Shown here: positions 13,486 through 27,756 of the stretch, piece after piece
Position numbering within the stretch: the first letter of the stretch is position 1
Layout of the letters: each line of letters begins with the position of its first letter
Source: a virus
Length of the DNA stretch: 64,000 nt
Virus record (IMG/VR): IMGVR_UViG_3300042429_001107
Strand: one strand, 5' to 3'
The notes under the pieces: generated by a model
Told to the model about the DNA's origin: nothing
Databases searched by the model: none
The model's input: the letters and a program-made list of their open reading frames with translations, nothing else
Translations under genes and position numbers: made by a program

Positions 13486-14289
13486 ATGATAAAGCCAATA
13501 GTACAAGAAATATTATTAAAAGGATGGAGTGTGGATCCTTTTACTTATTTTGGAAGCTACCATAAAAGAGTAGCTATAGAAATAGATCCTTCCCGTGATC
13601 CACATTGGATAAATGATGAGTCTTTATTTAAAGTAGCAGTTCAAGTTGAGCCTCCGTCTGTAACTAATAAAGCAGTAGAACAGTATCTTGATGTGGAGGG
13701 AAATAAATTCGATCTTATTCTTACATATTATTCTTCTATTCTTAAATCGAATAAGAAAGCTAAACTTTTTTATTTTGGCGACTCTTGGATAAAGGAGAAA
13801 AGCGAATCTATAGATAAAACAAGAAACGTTTCCTTTGTAACATCTAACAAGAATTTTACTCCTGGACATGCTGTAAGAATGGAGGTAGTTGATTCTCTTC
13901 ACTTAGGATTAGCTAGATTTGATTTGTATGGTAGGGGATTTAATCCTATAGAAAAAAAAGAGGAAGGACTTAATGATTATAAATTCTCTATAGTAATTGA
14001 GAATGAGTTTATGGAAAATTGGTTTACTGAAAAAATAGTCGATTGCTTTAGAACTAAAACAATACCGATCTATAAAGGATGTCCTAATATTAAAGATTTC
14101 TATAATGAGAAAGGAATAATAAAATTTGATACTACGGAAGAACTTTACTCAATATTAAATGATGTAAATTTTAATAGTACTTCAATTTATGATTCAATGA
14201 AAGAATCTATGGATGATAATTATAATAGATCATGGGCAGATCCTGCATTTAACGAAAGAGTAGAGATAGAAATAAAAAAATATCTATGA
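13486..14289 (+). CDS. GT10-like (alpha-1,3/4-fucosyltransferase-like) glycosyltransferase
   Basis: YKFSIVIEN...WFTEKIVDCF...IPIYKG motif. Confidence 0.85.
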   Translation: MIKPIVQEILLKGWSVDPFTYFGSYHKRVAIEIDPSRDPHWINDESLFKVAVQVEPPSVTNKAVEQYLDVEGNKFDLILTYYSSILKSNKKAKLFYFGDSWIKEKSESIDKTRNVSFVTSNKNFTPGHAVRMEVVDSLHLGLARFDLYGRGFNPIEKKEEGLNDYKFSIVIENEFMENWFTEKIVDCFRTKTIPIYKGCPNIKDFYNEKGIIKFDTTEELYSILNDVNFNSTSIYDSMKESMDDNYNRSWADPAFNERVEIEIKKYL

Positions 14290-15002
14290 ATATAGATTTT
14301 TTAAATAGAACAATATTAGTAACAGGTGGTACTAAAGGAATAGGATACCACGTAGCTAAAAATTTAAATTCTTGTGGAGCCAATGTTATTGTAACGGGTA
14401 CAAAGGATACTAATATAGACTATGGTAAATTCTTAAAAGCTGATTTTTCAACTAGGGAGGGAATATACAAATTTATTGAAATTATAGAAGAAATACCTAT
14501 AATAGATGGATGTTTTAATTGCGCGGGTATAAATAAAATATCATGCTTGGAAGATATAGACATAGAAGACTTTGATTCGATTATGAATGTAAACCTATAT
14601 GCTCCGTTTCTTATATCTAAACATCTAATCCCAAAAATGAAAAAGAATAATTATGGTAGGATTGTAAACGTTTCTTCTATATGGGGATCGATAACAAAAA
14701 AAGGAAGGACCTCCTATTCTGTTTCAAAAAATGGAATAATAGGTCTTACTAGAAGTTTAGCTGTAGAGGGAGCCAATAATAACGTGATAGTAAACTCGAT
14801 ATCTCCTGGATTTACTGAAACTGAATTAACTAGAAAATCTTTATCTGATTCAGATATCTTAGATCTTGAAAAAACAATACCAATGGGTAGAATGGCAACA
14901 CCTAATGAGATATCTAATGTTTCGTTATTTCTTCTATCAGAATGTAATTCGTATATGACTGGGCAAAATATTATAGTAGATGGAGGATTCTCAATTGTAT
15001 AA
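14286..15002 (+). CDS. SDR-family oxidoreductase
   Basis: TGGTKGIG, NCAG, YSVSK, NSISPGF, TGQNIIVDGG. Confidence 0.92.
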   Translation: MNIDFLNRTILVTGGTKGIGYHVAKNLNSCGANVIVTGTKDTNIDYGKFLKADFSTREGIYKFIEIIEEIPIIDGCFNCAGINKISCLEDIDIEDFDSIMNVNLYAPFLISKHLIPKMKKNNYGRIVNVSSIWGSITKKGRTSYSVSKNGIIGLTRSLAVEGANNNVIVNSISPGFTETELTRKSLSDSDILDLEKTIPMGRMATPNEISNVSLFLLSECNSYMTGQNIIVDGGFSIV

Positions 15003-16041
15003 AATAGATATAAAGTCATCAATAAGAGACTATAGTGTTTTCTTTATAGATTCAATAGAAGATCATATAAAAAATATAATAAAACCTAATGATATAATCA
15101 TATGTGACAATAAGATTAACATATCTATTAACAAAAATCTTAAAATAATTAAAGTTAAGGCATCAGAAAAATCTAAAAGTTTTGATGGTGTTAATTCTAT
15201 GATAACTAAAATATTAGATATAGGTTTAACTAAAAATGATAGAATAATATGTATAGGTGGTGGAACCATACAGGACCTTGGATCTTTTATAGCTTCAATT
15301 TTATTTAGGGGGATAGATTGGATATTCTATCCTACTACGCTTCTTTCCCAGGGAGATAGCTGTATAGGAAGTAAAACTTCTATAAATTTTGGGGATTATA
15401 AAAATCAGCTAGGTAATTTCTATCCCCCTGCTTCTGTTTTTGTAGATATAAATATTCTTAAATCATTGGATGATTCAGAAATACGCTCCGGTATAGGTGA
15501 AATGTCTCATTACTTTTTTATTAAAGGTGGGAACGATCTAGATTTTTTTGTTAAAAATTACAAAAAATGCTTTGAAATAAATACATCTATAAGAGATATA
15601 ATATACAAAAGCCTACTGATAAAGAAAGAATACATAGAAATAGATGAGTTTGATAAAGGTCCTAGGGTTATTTTTAATTATGGACACACATTTGGACATT
15701 CAATAGAATCTATTAAAAAGTATTCAATCCCACATGGTATTGCAGTATCTATAGGCATGGATATGGCTAATTATATTTCTTTTTGTAAGGGATATATAAA
15801 AGAGAACGATTTTTTATTTTACAGAAAGATATTAAAATCTATCTGGAGCGGGTTTGATTTATTAGATCTAGATGTAGATTTAATGATTACCTTTTTAAAA
15901 AAAGATAAAAAAAATGAATATAATAAAATAGGTTTAATACTAACAAAAGGTCCCGGAAATATGTTCAAAGAACTTATTGATCCACACCCTGAACTATTTA
16001 ACTATATCAATGATTATAAATTAAAATACATAAATAAATAA
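14980..16041 (+). CDS. AroB/3-dehydroquinate-synthase-like sugar-phosphate cyclase
   Basis: GGGTIQD, PTTLLSQGDSCIGSKT, KNQLGNFY, NYGHTFGHSIE, PHGIAV, DKKN. Confidence 0.88.
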   Translation: MEDSQLYKIDIKSSIRDYSVFFIDSIEDHIKNIIKPNDIIICDNKINISINKNLKIIKVKASEKSKSFDGVNSMITKILDIGLTKNDRIICIGGGTIQDLGSFIASILFRGIDWIFYPTTLLSQGDSCIGSKTSINFGDYKNQLGNFYPPASVFVDINILKSLDDSEIRSGIGEMSHYFFIKGGNDLDFFVKNYKKCFEINTSIRDIIYKSLLIKKEYIEIDEFDKGPRVIFNYGHTFGHSIESIKKYSIPHGIAVSIGMDMANYISFCKGYIKENDFLFYRKILKSIWSGFDLLDLDVDLMITFLKKDKKNEYNKIGLILTKGPGNMFKELIDPHPELFNYINDYKLKYINK

Positions 16042-16048
16042 AAAAGTT

Positions 16049-26501: not shown

Positions 26502-26519
26502 GATAATTTAATAATAGAA

Positions 26520-26978
26520 ATGAATAAAACGATAGGAATTACTTGCTCTACTTTTGATCTTTTACATACTGGACATATAATTATGCTAGAGGAGTGTAAA
26601 AAATACTGCGATTATTTAATATGCGCAATACAAGTTGATCCCTCATTAGATAGAATTGGAAAAAATAAACCAGTGCAGTCTTTAGTTGAAAGGTACATAC
26701 AATTAGATGCTGTTAAGCATGTTGATAAGATTATACCATACACTAATGAGAAAGAGCTTGAATTAATATTTATGTCATTAGATTTAGACGTTAGAATTAT
26801 AGGTGAAGAATATAAGGATATAGATTTTACAGGTAAGAATATTTGTATAAAAAGAAATATTAAATTAATATACAATAAAAGGGAGCATAATTTTTCTACA
26901 ACTAATTTAAGAAAATCAATATACTTAAATGAATTAAATAAAGAATTAGAAAAAAATAATAAGCCGGATGGAAATTAA
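26520..26978 (+). CDS. TagD-like (glycerol-3-phosphate-type) cytidylyltransferase
   Basis: TFDLLHTGH, ER...L, RIIGEEY, REHNFSTT. Confidence 0.88.
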   Translation: MNKTIGITCSTFDLLHTGHIIMLEECKKYCDYLICAIQVDPSLDRIGKNKPVQSLVERYIQLDAVKHVDKIIPYTNEKELELIFMSLDLDVRIIGEEYKDIDFTGKNICIKRNIKLIYNKREHNFSTTNLRKSIYLNELNKELEKNNKPDGN

Positions 26979-27756
26979 ATATAATAAGATTCTTATAGCA
27001 GGTCCTTGCGTAATTCAAAGTTGGGACACTTGTTATGAGGTAGCTATTGAAATTAAAAGATGTGCACTTCTGTATAATTTTACACCTATCTTCAAAGCAA
27101 GTTTTGATAAAGCTAATAGAACTTCGTCTAATGGATTTAGAGGCGTTGGTATAGATAAAGGATTAGATATACTATCTAAGATCAAACAGAGGCTAGATAT
27201 ACCTGTTATAACGGATGTACACGAAACTGAACAAGTTGAGCAAGTAGCATCAGTTGTGGATTACTTACAAGTTCCTGCTTTTTTGTCTAGACAGACAGAT
27301 CTTATTGAAGCATGTGCTAAAACAGGATTACCTGTGTTAGTTAAAAAAGGACAATTTCTTTCTCCTGAAAGTTGTAAATTCATTGAGGATAAATTTTACA
27401 AAGCTGGGGGTACACAATTACTAATAGGTGAAAGGGGTAACAGCTTTGGGTATAATGATTTGATAGTTGATGTCACATCAATTTCTAGATTAAAAAAATC
27501 CTGCGAAAATTCAAAGATTATAATGGATTGCACACACAGTCTGCAAAGACCCAATGGAATTTACGGAAAGACAGAAGGGAGAGGTGATATGATCGAAGAG
27601 ATGGTAAAATATGCTTCAGTAATGAATGCTGATGGAATATTTATAGAAACACATCCATACCCAGAACTCTCCCCGTCGGATTCTGAAAATATGTTAGAAC
27701 TTAGTAAATTTGAAAATATAATAAAAAAATCAAGATCGATATATGATACCCACTAA
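26968..27756 (+). CDS. kdsA: 3-deoxy-D-manno-octulosonate 8-phosphate synthase, metal-dependent type
   Basis: IAGPCVI, FKASFDKANRTS, PAFLSRQTDL, KKGQF, ERG..FGY, DCTHSLQ. Confidence 0.93.
   Translation: MEIKYNKILIAGPCVIQSWDTCYEVAIEIKRCALLYNFTPIFKASFDKANRTSSNGFRGVGIDKGLDILSKIKQRLDIPVITDVHETEQVEQVASVVDYLQVPAFLSRQTDLIEACAKTGLPVLVKKGQFLSPESCKFIEDKFYKAGGTQLLIGERGNSFGYNDLIVDVTSISRLKKSCENSKIIMDCTHSLQRPNGIYGKTEGRGDMIEEMVKYASVMNADGIFIETHPYPELSPSDSENMLELSKFENIIKKSRSIYDTH

Follow-up and report, generated by a model that had tools for sequence, protein, structure and literature searches.

We identified a glycan island of about 25 kb in a large uncultured phage, of which positions 14286-27756 form part. 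The window (the whole stretch of DNA analyzed, 64,000 nucleotides) belongs to a 124-kb IMG/VR phage record that is approximately 45% complete and carries a baseplate of the Bacteroidota-phage type. Three modules lie within 14286-27756: a GDP-colitose set, a Kdo8P set, and the phage form of a CMP-sugar-acid cassette. All genes previously named in this region are intact, tightly packed ORFs, and family matches agree with the original calls for every gene except one described as DegT. The genes are as follows, together with an additional Fcl-like reductase gene.

9413-10330: Fcl-like reductase
14286-15002, plus strand: SDR, a FabG-like short-chain reductase (Pfam adh_short_C2, 2.5e-50)
14980-16041, plus strand: AroB-like protein of the TIGR04425 clade, DHQS fold (Pfam DHQ_synthase and DHQS_C)
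16049-16657, plus strand: SIS1, a GmhA-like SIS sugar-phosphate isomerase and core cassette member (NCBIfam gmhA, 64 bits, far below the cut-off of 209)
16657-17490, plus strand: MptE/Maf- and CST-I-like putative CMP-sugar transferase, paralogue a (MptE-like 8e-8, CST-I 3.7e-5)
17491-18546, plus strand: probable glycosyltransferase (no Pfam family matched)
18543-19421, plus strand: MptE-like putative CMP-sugar transferase, paralogue b (MptE-like 36.2 bits, cut-off 34.6)
19418-20194, plus strand: GT29-like sialyltransferase-fold transferase (Pfam Glyco_transf_29 24.9 bits, cut-off 23)
20180-20779, minus strand: FkbM-type methyltransferase (Pfam Methyltransf_21, 5.5e-6)
20776-21924, minus strand: class-III (omega-type) aminotransferase, AT3 (Pfam Aminotran_3, 1e-59)
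21921-23039, minus strand: NeuA/PseF-like CMP-transferase fused to a metal-binding cupin (CTP_transf_3 1.4e-28, Cupin_2 1.5e-12)
23091-23744, plus strand: methyltransferase travelling with the cassette (weak Methyltransf_25 match)
23741-24910, plus strand: ColD-type GDP-4-keto-6-deoxymannose 3-dehydratase (best PDB match ColD/WbdK, 7e-49)
24907-25914, plus strand: GDP-mannose 4,6-dehydratase, GMD (gmd TIGR01472 495 bits, cut-off 415)
25914-26501, plus strand: KdsD/KpsF-like arabinose-5-phosphate isomerase, single-domain, without CBS domains (kpsF TIGR00393)
26520-26978, plus strand: small HIGH-type cytidylyl/adenylyltransferase-like protein of the TagD / RfaE domain II type (Pfam CTP_transf_like, 1.5e-14)
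26968-27756, plus strand: KdsA, Kdo8P synthase of the Cys-type metal-dependent class (NF003543 309 bits, cut-off 242)

The gene at 23741-24910, earlier taken for a DegT-family aminotransferase, encodes a ColD-type 3-dehydratase, as judged from its best PDB match and from the His-His found at the site of the aminotransferase Lys. ColD and GMD, with the Fcl-like reductase, form a GDP-colitose module that is separate from the CMP-sugar-acid cassette, and the original treatment of the whole region as one pathway does not hold.

The KdsA protein carries an N-terminal GPC as well as DKANRTS, which includes the KANRTS motif reported before, and scores at most 104 bits against DAHP synthase families. 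The KdsD-like protein matches only the SIS half of the kpsF model (143.9 bits, cut-off 203.7) and scores 130.7 bits with KdsD NF008141. The small protein encoded between them gives matches far below cut-offs with the rfaE domain II and glycerol-3-P cytidylyltransferase families; a 56% homologue adjoins GMD in a Polaribacter locus (L034).

The best-scoring family for the AroB-like protein is NCBIfam TIGR04425, 'AroB-related putative sugar phosphate phospholyase (cyclizing)', a hypothetical equivalog without an experimental member. The score of 376.8 bits is just below the cut-off of 400 (a bacterial homologue, L017, reaches 465 bits), and that for aroB TIGR01357 is 252.6 bits, below a cut-off of 305. 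Structures in the PDB rank DHQS first (3e-43), followed by DOIS (9e-31), ValA (2e-19) and DDGS (2e-19), which places the enzyme nearer to DHQS than to cyclases acting on sedoheptulose-7-P or glucose-6-P. Twelve of the 13 DHQS active-site positions are invariant in the family, with the spacing of Salmonella AroB; the kept positions are those reported to bind Zn, phosphate and carboxylate in the A. nidulans structure. The sole change is from K197 to His (His177 here, in the GEMSH motif pointed out by the original prediction). This position is His in all 78 bacterial homologues and in 30 of 60 viral ones, and a single change on the tree suffices to explain the His state.

We consider it very improbable that the gene is an ordinary aroB, that is, an auxiliary shikimate gene unrelated to the sugar genes adjoining it. 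The protein does have the DHQS Pfam domains and a nearly full DHQS active site. However, it scores below the aroB cut-off and higher with TIGR04425, it is a member of the His clade, which is always found in glycan cassettes, and a phosphatase replaces it in a sibling phage described below. No type II dehydroquinase is matched in the whole 124-kb record and no shikimate gene occurs among the annotated ORFs neighboring the AroB-like gene. The original view, that this is not a usual shikimate enzyme and that no other shikimate genes are nearby, is thus upheld.

The end of the SDR gene overlaps the start of the AroB-like gene by 23 nt. Of 80 bacterial loci, 76 have an SDR homologue immediately upstream of the AroB-like gene (median identity 44%), and one is present in all 26 viral CMP-cupin loci having AroB, suggesting that the SDR is an obligate partner of the AroB-like enzyme. 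The third member of the trio, SIS1, matches only phosphoheptose isomerases in the PDB (approximately 1e-9). Across its family the GmhA His and the SxSGxS phosphate loop are retained, the catalytic Glu is replaced by Asp, and the Gln/His equivalents are missing. SIS1 is found in 38 of 42 viral CMP-cupin loci, whether AroB is present or not. With the KdsD-like protein the phage has two isomerases, and the reading that we prefer below does not account for SIS1.

The CMP-transferase-cupin is the only CTP_transf_3 match in the 124-kb record, in agreement with the single NeuA/KdsB-like activator noted originally, and no KdsB was found in that record. Its CMP-transferase domain scores higher with PseF (94 bits) than with KdsB families (at most 65 bits), all of these below cut-offs, and in the PDB it matches CMP-sialic acid synthetases best. 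Across 30 sequences, conservation reaches 90% or more for PxRxGSxR..KN, DxD and the full cupin metal motif (G-x5-H-x-H-x4-E-x6-G and a His further on). The closest solved relatives of the neighboring aminotransferase are lysine epsilon-, acetylornithine- and GABA-aminotransferases; a class-III aminotransferase occurs in 37 of the 42 viral loci and in bacterial loci L057, L063 and L075. The FkbM-type methyltransferase has homologues (33–35%) in four viral cassettes (L086, L091, L110 and L114). The second methyltransferase weakly matches the pseudaminic-acid-associated methylase TIGR03587 (29.5 bits, below cut-off), and a 64% homologue directly adjoins the CMP-cupin gene in L085/L176.

The three ulosonate-transferase-like genes of the original prediction are present with uneven support, two scoring above Pfam cut-offs and the product of 16657-17490 just below (MptE 32.7 bits, CST-I 23.8 bits). 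This protein and that of 18543-19421 are paralogues. A 53% homologue of the former adjoins the methyltransferase and CMP-cupin genes in L085/L176, and the latter has weak tblastn matches to MptE-like genes of the bacterial cassette. For the gene between them, ESM Atlas features offer as a lead viral 'glycosyltransferase family protein' clusters (0.96). The AlphaFold model of the third transferase (pLDDT 89.9, pTM 0.90) predicts a sialyltransferase fold: all 27 Foldseek PDB matches with E <= 0.001 are GT29 (ST8Sia/ST6Gal/ST3Gal/ST6GalNAc), and CstII appears at weaker E-values. GT29-like homologues are found in 32 of the 42 viral loci, mostly adjoining the CMP-cupin gene. Together, the NeuA-like activator and the GT29-like model point to a sugar donor of the sialic-acid type.

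The CMP-sugar-acid cassette, consisting of the GmhA-like SIS, SDR, TIGR04425-clade AroB-like protein, class-III aminotransferase, NeuA-like CMP-transferase-cupin, sialyltransferase-fold transferases and methyltransferases, is widespread but uncharacterized, and a literature search found no published description of it or of its pathway. The trio of SDR, AroB and SIS is thus not restricted to this phage: the cassette to which it belongs occurs in no fewer than 324 bacterial species genomes and in dozens of viral contigs. Around the AroB-like gene of 45 fully flanked bacterial loci we found GFO (45/45), SDR (43/45), 2-hydroxyacid dehydrogenase (43/45), SIS (41/45), CMP-transferase (39/45), DUF386 (37/45) and MptE-like (35/45) genes. 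About 30 IMG/VR contigs contain the phage form, GT29 - CMP-cupin - AT3 - SIS1 - SDR - AroB. Compared with bacterial cassettes, this form has the aminotransferase and the cupin fusion in addition and lacks the GFO, 2-hydroxyacid dehydrogenase, DUF386, PF04199 and HpcH genes; the absence of the first two is to be set against the reading preferred below.

The window aligns colinearly with the record of a sibling phage, L152. The two share 99.9% nucleotide identity in KdsA, 99.5% in KdsD and GMD, 98.2% in ColD and 97.0% in SIS1, whereas the aminotransferase gene is only 80% identical between flanking genes at 93–99%. The gene at 17491-18546 is missing from L152 and that at 18543-19421 mostly so. 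Positions 14288-16023 of the window, containing SDR and AroB, correspond to 510 bp in L152 carrying an ORF of 178 amino acids whose PDB and NCBIfam matches are solely KDN9P/Kdo8P phosphatases, and TIGR04425 has no match in the L152 record. L152 thus carries a predicted KdsC/KDN9P-type phosphatase at the exact site of the SDR and AroB-like genes. The same exchange is seen across viral cassettes generally. Among 42 distinct viral CMP-cupin loci, AroB occurs in 26, always with SDR, a HAD-like protein of about 130 amino acids with a DFDGV motif occurs in 8, and none has both. All 24 HAD-protein loci are without AroB, and at least six switches are needed on the CMP-cupin tree. AroB with SDR and phosphatase are interchangeable in these cassettes.

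Our preferred reading, to which we give slightly better than even weight, is that the AroB-like enzyme and SDR strip the terminal phosphate from a phospho-ulosonate, yielding a deoxy/amino sugar acid and not a cyclitol. Here the phospho-ulosonate is probably Kdo8P. The pairing in L152 of nearly identical KdsD and KdsA with a KdsC-type phosphatase at the SDR-AroB site lends support to the originally proposed connection of KdsD-KdsA with the AroB-like enzyme. Against Kdo8P, the DHQS geometry of the active site suits a 7-carbon, DAHP-like substrate. The phosphate of Kdo8P lies a further carbon away from the ring, and elimination of the DHQS type would require the substrate to be bound as a furanose or in open-chain form.

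The repeated exchange with phosphatases, with the same downstream genes kept in place, weakens the carbocyclic alternative of the original prediction. In this alternative the AroB-like enzyme would complete a DHQS-type aldol closure on DAHP, heptulosonate-7-P or sedoheptulose-7-P, the SDR and aminotransferase would act on the ring ketone, and the CMP-transferase would accept a quinate-like (amino)cyclitol acid, esterifying its tertiary hydroxyl. One CMP-transferase and one set of transferases would hardly suit both such a carbocycle and a dephosphorylated sugar acid. Sialyltransferase-fold and Maf-like transferases require an oxocarbenium-forming donor with a real anomeric center, and one or the other is always in the cassette, yet ring closure would spend the anomeric carbon. 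Cyclization could be expected from the 12 conserved active-site residues, which include all those used for it. However, the invariant K197-to-His change separates the clade from cyclizing DHQS, and the enzyme is further from ValA and DDGS than from DHQS. The alternative does gain from the core position of the GmhA-like SIS (sedoheptulose-7-P, the GmhA substrate, also feeds C7-cyclitol synthases) and from the IolG-like GFO oxidoreductase of bacterial cassettes, whose family acts on inositols. Overall we find it unlikely.

It is also possible, if a good deal less probable than not, that the modules are independent. KdsD and KdsA would boost the ordinary Kdo supply, with host KdsC and KdsB finishing the synthesis, and the AroB cassette would convert host-made DAHP or sedoheptulose-7-P-derived heptulosonate-7-P to a 7-carbon deoxy/amino heptulosonic acid. 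The DHQS-like active site suits such a substrate, and the bacterial SIS, GFO and PGDH-like 2-hydroxyacid dehydrogenase could in sequence convert sedoheptulose-7-P to heptulosonate-7-P. DAHP_synth_1 (KdsA/DAHP synthase) is found in none of 28 other viral cassette records, one of them 98% complete, and neither KdsA nor KdsD lies within 10 kb of any of 80 bacterial AroB-like loci. The cassette therefore does not generally include KdsA, and the host may supply the phosphorylated precursor, for instance DAHP or Kdo8P. In keeping with our preferred reading, sister cassettes do have ulosonate-phosphate synthase genes of their own adjoining AT3 / CMP-cupin / SIS1: KdsA in L104 and L112, and in L164 a DAHP-synthase-like gene, together with a HAD gene. 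That the L164 gene is not KdsA-like favors independence. Actinobacterial MAGs, expected to be without Kdo, also have the cassette, but all of their loci include an HpcH aldolase, suggesting a synthase step that would be superfluous were DAHP the precursor. Independence is further at odds with the one CMP-transferase of the phage record and its lack of KdsB and KdsC, and with L152, where KdsD, KdsA, the phosphatase inside the cassette and the CMP-transferase complete a Kdo-type four-step set.

The phospholyase reading that we prefer resembles the Kdo pathway (KdsD, KdsA, KdsC, KdsB) in its isomerase, its Kdo8P synthase with KANR(S/T), its KdsB/NeuA-family CMP-transferase, and the KdsC-type phosphatase of L152. 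Amination of the sugar acid before activation would be shared with the Kdo8N branch of Shewanella, which, in 2013 work of Gattis et al., reportedly proceeds via the KdnB oxidase (Fe-ADH/DHQS-like superfamily) and the KdnA aminotransferase. However, the phage has the AroB-like enzyme and SDR in place of KdsC, its activator carries a fused metal cupin and is nearer to NeuA/PseF than to KdsB, its aminotransferase is of class III, and its transferases are of sialyltransferase fold, not WaaA-like. The absence of NeuB and of KdsC-family matches, noted originally for the window, extends to the whole 124-kb record (approximately 45% complete).

AroB (TIGR01357) and the sugar phosphate cyclases (DOIS, EEVS, DDGS) share with the phage enzyme the fold, the NAD/Zn and phosphate-binding residues, and the expected first half-reaction, loss of phosphate by oxidation and beta-elimination. 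The phage clade differs in its Lys-to-His change throughout, in its glycan rather than shikimate/cyclitol context, and in being interchangeable with hydrolytic phosphatases; ring closure is probably not completed. Bacterial TIGR04425 members have the same His signature and SDR/SIS/CMP-transferase neighbors. The CMP-nonulosonic acid pathways (Neu5Ac, Kdn, legionaminic and pseudaminic acid) have in common the NeuA/PseF-like activator, GT29/GT42/Maf-like transferases, the deoxy and amino pattern, the weak Pse-associated methylase match, and the KDN9P-phosphatase-like gene of L152. However, the phage lacks a NeuB-type synthase, and its deoxy end would come from phosphate elimination on the free sugar acid and not from an NDP-sugar 4,6-dehydratase.

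The region appears to encode a pathway to a CMP-activated ulosonic-acid-type sugar, probably aminated and methylated, that matches no recognized pathway, as originally proposed. We infer its substrate, chemistry, tailoring order and acceptor to be as follows. SIS1 and/or the KdsD-like isomerase with a synthase would produce a 3-deoxy-2-ulosonate with a terminal phosphate, which would be Kdo8P if the synthase is the island's own KdsA. The AroB-like enzyme and SDR would then act at the step of the KdsC-type phosphatase in sister cassettes. Most likely bound NAD+ would oxidize the neighboring hydroxyl, phosphate would be eliminated without hydrolysis, and reduction would follow, leaving a deoxy (methyl or keto) end in place of CH2OH with no carbocycle closure. 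The product would next be decorated by the two methyltransferases and by the class-III aminotransferase, which the metal cupin may assist, and the NeuA-like domain would convert it to a CMP-sugar. The GT29-, CST-I- and Maf-like enzymes may then transfer the sugar onto the host envelope or virion proteins.

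The window comprises bases 24162-88161 of a single linear IMG/VR record of 123,769 bases, which has a G+C content of 32%, no tRNA genes, and a CheckV completeness of about 45%. Myovirus-type baseplate genes (phrog_430, phrog_219) lie downstream of the sugar genes, with a homing-endonuclease-like gene in their midst (47100-48305, plus strand; phrog_3339, 1e-19), and the nearest relatives of the baseplate wedge protein occur in an uncultured phage of 462 kb, in Prevotella Lak megaphages, and in phages of Tenacibaculum, Chryseobacterium and Flavobacterium. The baseplate genes and these relatives indicate that the record is a fragment of a large phage whose host is probably a member of the Bacteroidota. 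A megablast search returned no match to the stretch among GenBank phages.

A glycan island of approximately 25 kb (roughly 6077-30485) encloses the putative sugar pathway at 14286-27756. It is dense in glycosyltransferase-like genes, with at least ten transferase-like genes in all. All of the genes named in the original prediction were found intact at their predicted positions. The principal features are as follows.

7435-14289: GT2, GT7-like, GT10, GT11 and GT25 genes
11062-11925, plus strand: short nucleotide-sugar-dehydrogenase-like protein (287 aa) with a Rossmann motif and the catalytic Cys motif GGHCFPKD
12546-13484 and 27743-28459, plus strand: two ORFs with no significant Pfam family and weak GT2 matches (E ~1e-3)
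14286-15002, plus strand: SDR, overlapping the start of the AroB-like gene
14980-16041, plus strand: AroB-like gene of the TIGR04425 type, with the motif GEMSH
16049-16657, plus strand: GmhA-like SIS (SIS1), starting 8 nt past the AroB-like stop
16657-17490 and 18543-19421, plus strand: two MptE/CST-I-like paralogues, with one ORF of no assigned family between them
19418-20194, plus strand: GT29-like transferase
20180-23039, minus strand: FkbM methyltransferase, class-III aminotransferase, and a CTP_transf_3-cupin fusion (CMP-cupin)
After 23039, in order: methyltransferase (23091), DegT-family gene, GMD, SIS-only KdsD-like gene, small HIGH-type nucleotidyltransferase, KdsA
26520-26978, plus strand: the small HIGH-motif nucleotidyltransferase (152 aa), of the TagD or RfaE domain II type, between the KdsD-like gene and KdsA

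The dehydrogenase-like protein lacks the C-terminal UDP-binding domain and exceeds the TIGR03026 cut-off over model positions 65-299 only. Its length recurs in nine viral loci (277–293 aa, 42–54% identity), which indicates a genuine short form rather than a broken gene. At the two ends of the full record, outside the window, are Ser/Gly-rich repeats of the SGSSGTSG type and collagen-like G-x-T/G-E-T triplets, respectively. These repeats are possible acceptors for the island transferases, and are probably the reason that the assembly stops at both ends.

KdsA carries the predicted Kdo8P-type motif (KANRT) and scores 309.3 bits on NF003543 against a cut-off of 242. The KdsD-like protein is 195 aa long and consists of the SIS half only, lacking the two CBS domains that accompany SIS in the kpsF model, on which it scores 143.9 bits, below the cut-off of 203.7. 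Bacteroides has single-domain arabinose-5-phosphate isomerases of this type. Homologues of the small nucleotidyltransferase adjoin GMD in a Polaribacter locus (56% identity) and occur in several viral loci (39–44%). The CMP-cupin, 6 kb from the AroB-like gene and on the opposite strand, is the only CTP_transf_3 protein in the record and hence the sole NeuA/KdsB-like activator, as had been suggested. It scores at most 65 bits on the KdsB families and 94 bits on PseF, every score being below its cut-off. Its transferase domain retains the usual CTP and Mg motifs, and the metal motif of its cupin domain is complete, with conservation of at least 90%. SIS1 is related to GmhA but has diverged from it: the His and the phosphate loop are retained, Asp stands in place of Glu, and the Gln and His have no equivalents. 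The lack of NeuB and KdsC noted for the window extends to the 124-kb record (about 45% complete), which contains no match to PF03102 or TIGR01670, and none to type II dehydroquinase.

Three ulosonate-transferase-like genes had been noted. All three genes are present, but the assignment is firm by fold for the GT29-like protein, the two others being MptE/CST-I-like paralogues. The GT29-like protein scores 24.9 bits on the Pfam model (cut-off 23), and all 27 Foldseek PDB matches with E ≤ 0.001 to its AlphaFold model (pLDDT 89.9) are mammalian GT29 sialyltransferases (probability 1.0, TM 0.42–0.58), with CstII appearing at weaker E-values. The predicted structure thus firmly points to a GT29-like transferase of the sialyltransferase fold at 19418-20194.

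The DegT-family gene was considered as an aminotransferase of the ulosonate route and rejected. The closest PDB match of its product, WbdK/ColD (7e-49), identifies the protein as ColD; His-His replaces the PLP lysine, with its HHI aligned to the HHI of ColD/WbdK. The gmd product scores 495 bits against a cut-off of 415, whereas the reductase at 9413-10330 is merely Fcl-like (177 bits, cut-off 500). Judged from sequence, ColD, GMD and the Fcl-like gene are a predicted GDP-colitose module apart from the ulosonate route.

The AroB-like protein matches TIGR04425, annotated as a hypothetical equivalog named 'AroB-related putative sugar phosphate phospholyase', over positions 1-345 of 348 with 376.8 bits (E 9e-113), below the cut-off of 400; a bacterial member (L017) scores 465.5 bits. 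The conserved neighbourhood of this family is also present, with the SDR directly upstream and SIS1 and the CMP-transferase nearby, and the same set is found in bacterial and viral loci. Among proteins of known structure it is closest to DHQS (3e-43), followed by DOIS (9e-31), and ValA and DDGS (2e-19). In an alignment of the protein with Salmonella AroB and 78 bacterial and 60 viral homologues, there is no variation at 12 of the 13 classical active-site positions of DHQS, and their spacing is identical to that of Salmonella AroB. We take these positions to be R130, D146, K152, N162, E194, K197, K250, R264, N268, H271, H275, H287 and K356 in A. nidulans numbering, and the roles of K250 and R264 (carboxylate) and of K197 are presumably those in the A. 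nidulans DHQS structure. The sole change is at K197, which is His177 in this protein, within the GEMSH motif noted originally. An ordinary AroB is scarcely credible given this replacement among otherwise retained active-site residues and a score on the aroB model TIGR01357 of 252.6 bits, below the cut-off of 305.

At the K197 position every one of the 78 bacterial homologues has His, as do 30 of the 60 viral ones, the other 30 having Lys. With Salmonella AroB as the root, the tree separates the two states by one change, and the nearest rows to the window protein are viral and of the His type. The presence of His in every bacterial row and the single change indicate that GEMSH is the signature of a distinct clade, within which the sequence places the phage protein. 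None of 14 control genomes has a TIGR04425 member over the cut-off, and no isolate phage in the GenBank phage set has a His-type AroB; matches there at 31–39% identity come from ordinary aroB genes of host-like records. A literature search returned no relevant publication on TIGR04425 or the AroB-related family.

Two other viral subgroups were observed. In the Lys-type subgroup (L104, L112, L111, L116, L118, L132) the gene order is DegT, AroB, SIS, in some cases followed by a CMP-transferase and KdsA, and in L104 and L112 the adjoining KdsA has the KANRT motif. In a third subgroup (L117-L150; 36–39% identity) just an SDR lies upstream.

When GTDB was scanned by pattern with one genome for each species, at least 324 loci emerged that encode AroB-like proteins at approximately 41–52% identity, in Bacteroidota, Verrucomicrobiota, Desulfobacterota, Nitrospirota, Actinomycetota and other phyla. 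ORFs were clustered in the best 80 of these loci, and neighbours were counted in the 45 with full 10-kb flanks.

Genes accompanying AroB-like in the 45 bacterial loci with full flanks
GFO/IDH/MocA oxidoreductase (GFO): 45/45
PGDH-like D-2-hydroxyacid dehydrogenase: 43/45
SDR: 43/45
GmhA-like SIS: 41/45
CMP-transferase: 39/45
DUF386/YhcH: 37/45
MptE-like: 35/45
HpcH/HpaI aldolase: 30/45
PF04199 'cyclase': 24/45

The phage form in IMG/VR contigs is shorter, consisting of GT29-like, CMP-cupin, class-III aminotransferase, SIS1, SDR and AroB-like genes, often followed by ColD and GMD. The recurrence of the SDR–AroB–SIS trio with the CMP-cupin, proposed earlier as a check, is therefore borne out. 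In contrast to the bacterial cassette, GFO, the 2-hydroxyacid dehydrogenase and HpcH are absent from the three largest viral cassette records checked (98%, 71% and 47% complete), and these three, DUF386 and PF04199 were not found anywhere in the window's record (about 45% complete).

A KdsA or DAHP-synthase gene occurs in none of the 28 other viral cassette records, and KdsA in none of the 80 bacterial loci. This distribution favours a reading in which a seven-carbon precursor is supplied by the host and the KdsD–KdsA pair is separate from the cassette. The active site suits DAHP, and the bacterial GFO and PGDH-like dehydrogenase could make heptulosonate-7-phosphate from sedoheptulose-7-phosphate. 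We regard this reading as a strong rival, albeit an unlikely one. Against a separate KdsD–KdsA pair stands a sibling phage, L152, in which the same genes accompany a KdsC-type phosphatase at the site of the SDR and AroB-like genes.

L152 was found by a scan with the CMP-cupin alignment. Its 119.8-kb record contains an island colinear with that of the window.

Nucleotide identity between the window and L152
KdsA: 99.9%
Small nucleotidyltransferase: 99.6%
KdsD-like: 99.5%
GMD: 99.5%
ColD: 98.2%
Methyltransferase (23091): 97.6%
SIS1: 97.0%
GT29-like: 95.2%
FkbM: 93.3%
First MptE-like gene: 82.6%
CMP-cupin: 80.4%
Aminotransferase: 80.2%

Over 16657-23039 the differences fall in discrete patches, with SIS1, the GT29-like gene and FkbM between them at 93–97%, and a 1.8-kb indel (17492-19302, the ORF without a family and the second MptE paralogue) is absent from L152. 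This patchy divergence looks like module shuffling within the island. In place of 14288-16023, which is exactly the SDR and AroB-like genes, L152 has 510 bp with an ORF of 178 aa (L152:13055-13591), at the start of which lies a DFDG HAD motif. The only PDB matches of this ORF are the Bacteroides KDN-9-phosphate phosphatase (9e-9) and KdsC proteins, and its NCBIfam matches are to the same two families, below their cut-offs. The L152 record contains no TIGR04425 match. The two near-identical phages thus differ at one site, where one has a KdsC-type phosphatase and the other the SDR–AroB-like pair. L152 has all four step types of the Kdo pathway (isomerase, KdsA, phosphatase, CMP-transferase), whereas the window's record is without KdsC and has the SDR and AroB-like genes at that site.

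The same exchange is apparent across viral cassettes. AroB occurs in 26 of 42 distinct viral CMP-cupin loci, each time with an SDR (26/26), and eight of the 42 have a small HAD-like protein (~130 aa, DFDGV...YIDDK) within 8 kb; none has both. AroB is missing from 24 of 24 loci with the small HAD-like protein. The AroB and phosphatase states are interleaved on the CMP-cupin tree with at least six changes, which rules out a sorting of CMP-cupin sequences by partner. The interleaved states have the look of two alternative solutions that have displaced one another repeatedly at a single step of the pathway.

Phosphatase-type sister cassettes can carry their own synthase. In L164, the order is 2-hydroxyacid dehydrogenase, methyltransferase, CMP-transferase, DAHP-synthase-like, aminotransferase, CMP-cupin, SIS1, HAD, GT29, including the following gene.

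L164:5957-6817, plus strand: DAHP-synthase-like gene, 258 bits on NF006421 (below cut-off) versus 95 on KdsA

Its motif reads KPCT where type I-beta DAHP synthases presumably have KPRT, which suggests an altered aldose substrate.

The AroB-like protein and SDR belong to a pathway ending in a NeuA-type CMP-transferase and sialyltransferase-fold transferases, and are interchangeable with phosphatases of the phospho-ulosonate type. In this phage, the simplest source of substrate would be its own KdsD-like isomerase and KdsA, yielding Kdo8P. We infer that the AroB-like protein and SDR act on a 3-deoxy-2-ulosonate phosphate and take off its terminal phosphate through the opening half of DHQS chemistry: NAD-dependent oxidation would be followed by beta-elimination of phosphate and then by reduction. 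As the SDR would finish the keto intermediate, the sugar would end in a deoxy or keto carbon rather than CH2OH. Ring closure is not expected, since closing the ring onto C2 would abolish the anomeric centre needed for CMP activation and sialyltransferase-type transfer; a carbocyclic product is improbable for the same reason. The invariant exchange of Lys for His may contribute to this departure from DHQS. Relatives of the class-III aminotransferase act on carbonyls remote from a carboxylate; this enzyme, the metal cupin and the two methyltransferases would decorate the sugar. The originally proposed aminated, CMP-activated ulosonate, probably Kdo-derived, is retained, but it is probably not a cyclitol, and the genes mix three modules rather than forming a single pathway.

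We tentatively propose, while granting considerable doubt, that His-type AroB-like proteins are a new class of non-cyclising phospho-ulosonate phospholyases which, with the SDR, convert the terminal phosphate of a Kdo8P- or DAHP-type substrate to a deoxy or keto end. The enzyme step itself is likely new. NDP-sugar 4,6-dehydratases offer an unrelated parallel; the proposed route would instead deoxygenate a free sugar acid, with phosphate as leaving group. Several points sit uneasily with this interpretation. The active site is of the kind that serves the seven-carbon DAHP. The phosphate of Kdo8P is one carbon further from the ring than that of DAHP, so DHQS-type elimination would need furanose or open-chain binding. 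Most cassettes are without a synthase of their own, and SIS1 is a poor fit beside a KdsD-like isomerase.

CMP-activated sugar acids such as Kdo and sialic, legionaminic and pseudaminic acids decide how phages and immune systems see bacteria. To our knowledge, the known pathways to them all employ a NeuB- or KdsA-type synthase. Routes that pass through a phosphorylated ulosonate, namely the one to Kdo and those leading to Kdn and Neu5Ac by way of a 9-phosphate, lose the phosphate through a phosphatase. Here a dehydroquinate synthase relative appears to have been recruited to the phosphatase step together with a reductase, giving a variant of the known CMP-ulosonic acid pathways in a widespread cassette whose carriers number in the hundreds among bacterial species and in the dozens among phages, and which is not described in the literature found. 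The step is directly testable in vitro, and the window phage and L152 offer a natural experiment in module exchange, open to reconstruction there. If the proposed chemistry is true, both the enzyme activity and the family of surface sugars would be new, and there would be a handle on the unassigned CMP-linked alpha-keto acids seen by mass spectrometry (bioRxiv 10.64898/2026.04.20.719630), to which a relation is possible only. The chemistry would also be a route to undescribed deoxy or amino octulosonic or heptulosonic acids, displayed by phages and many bacteria through sialyltransferase-like enzymes.
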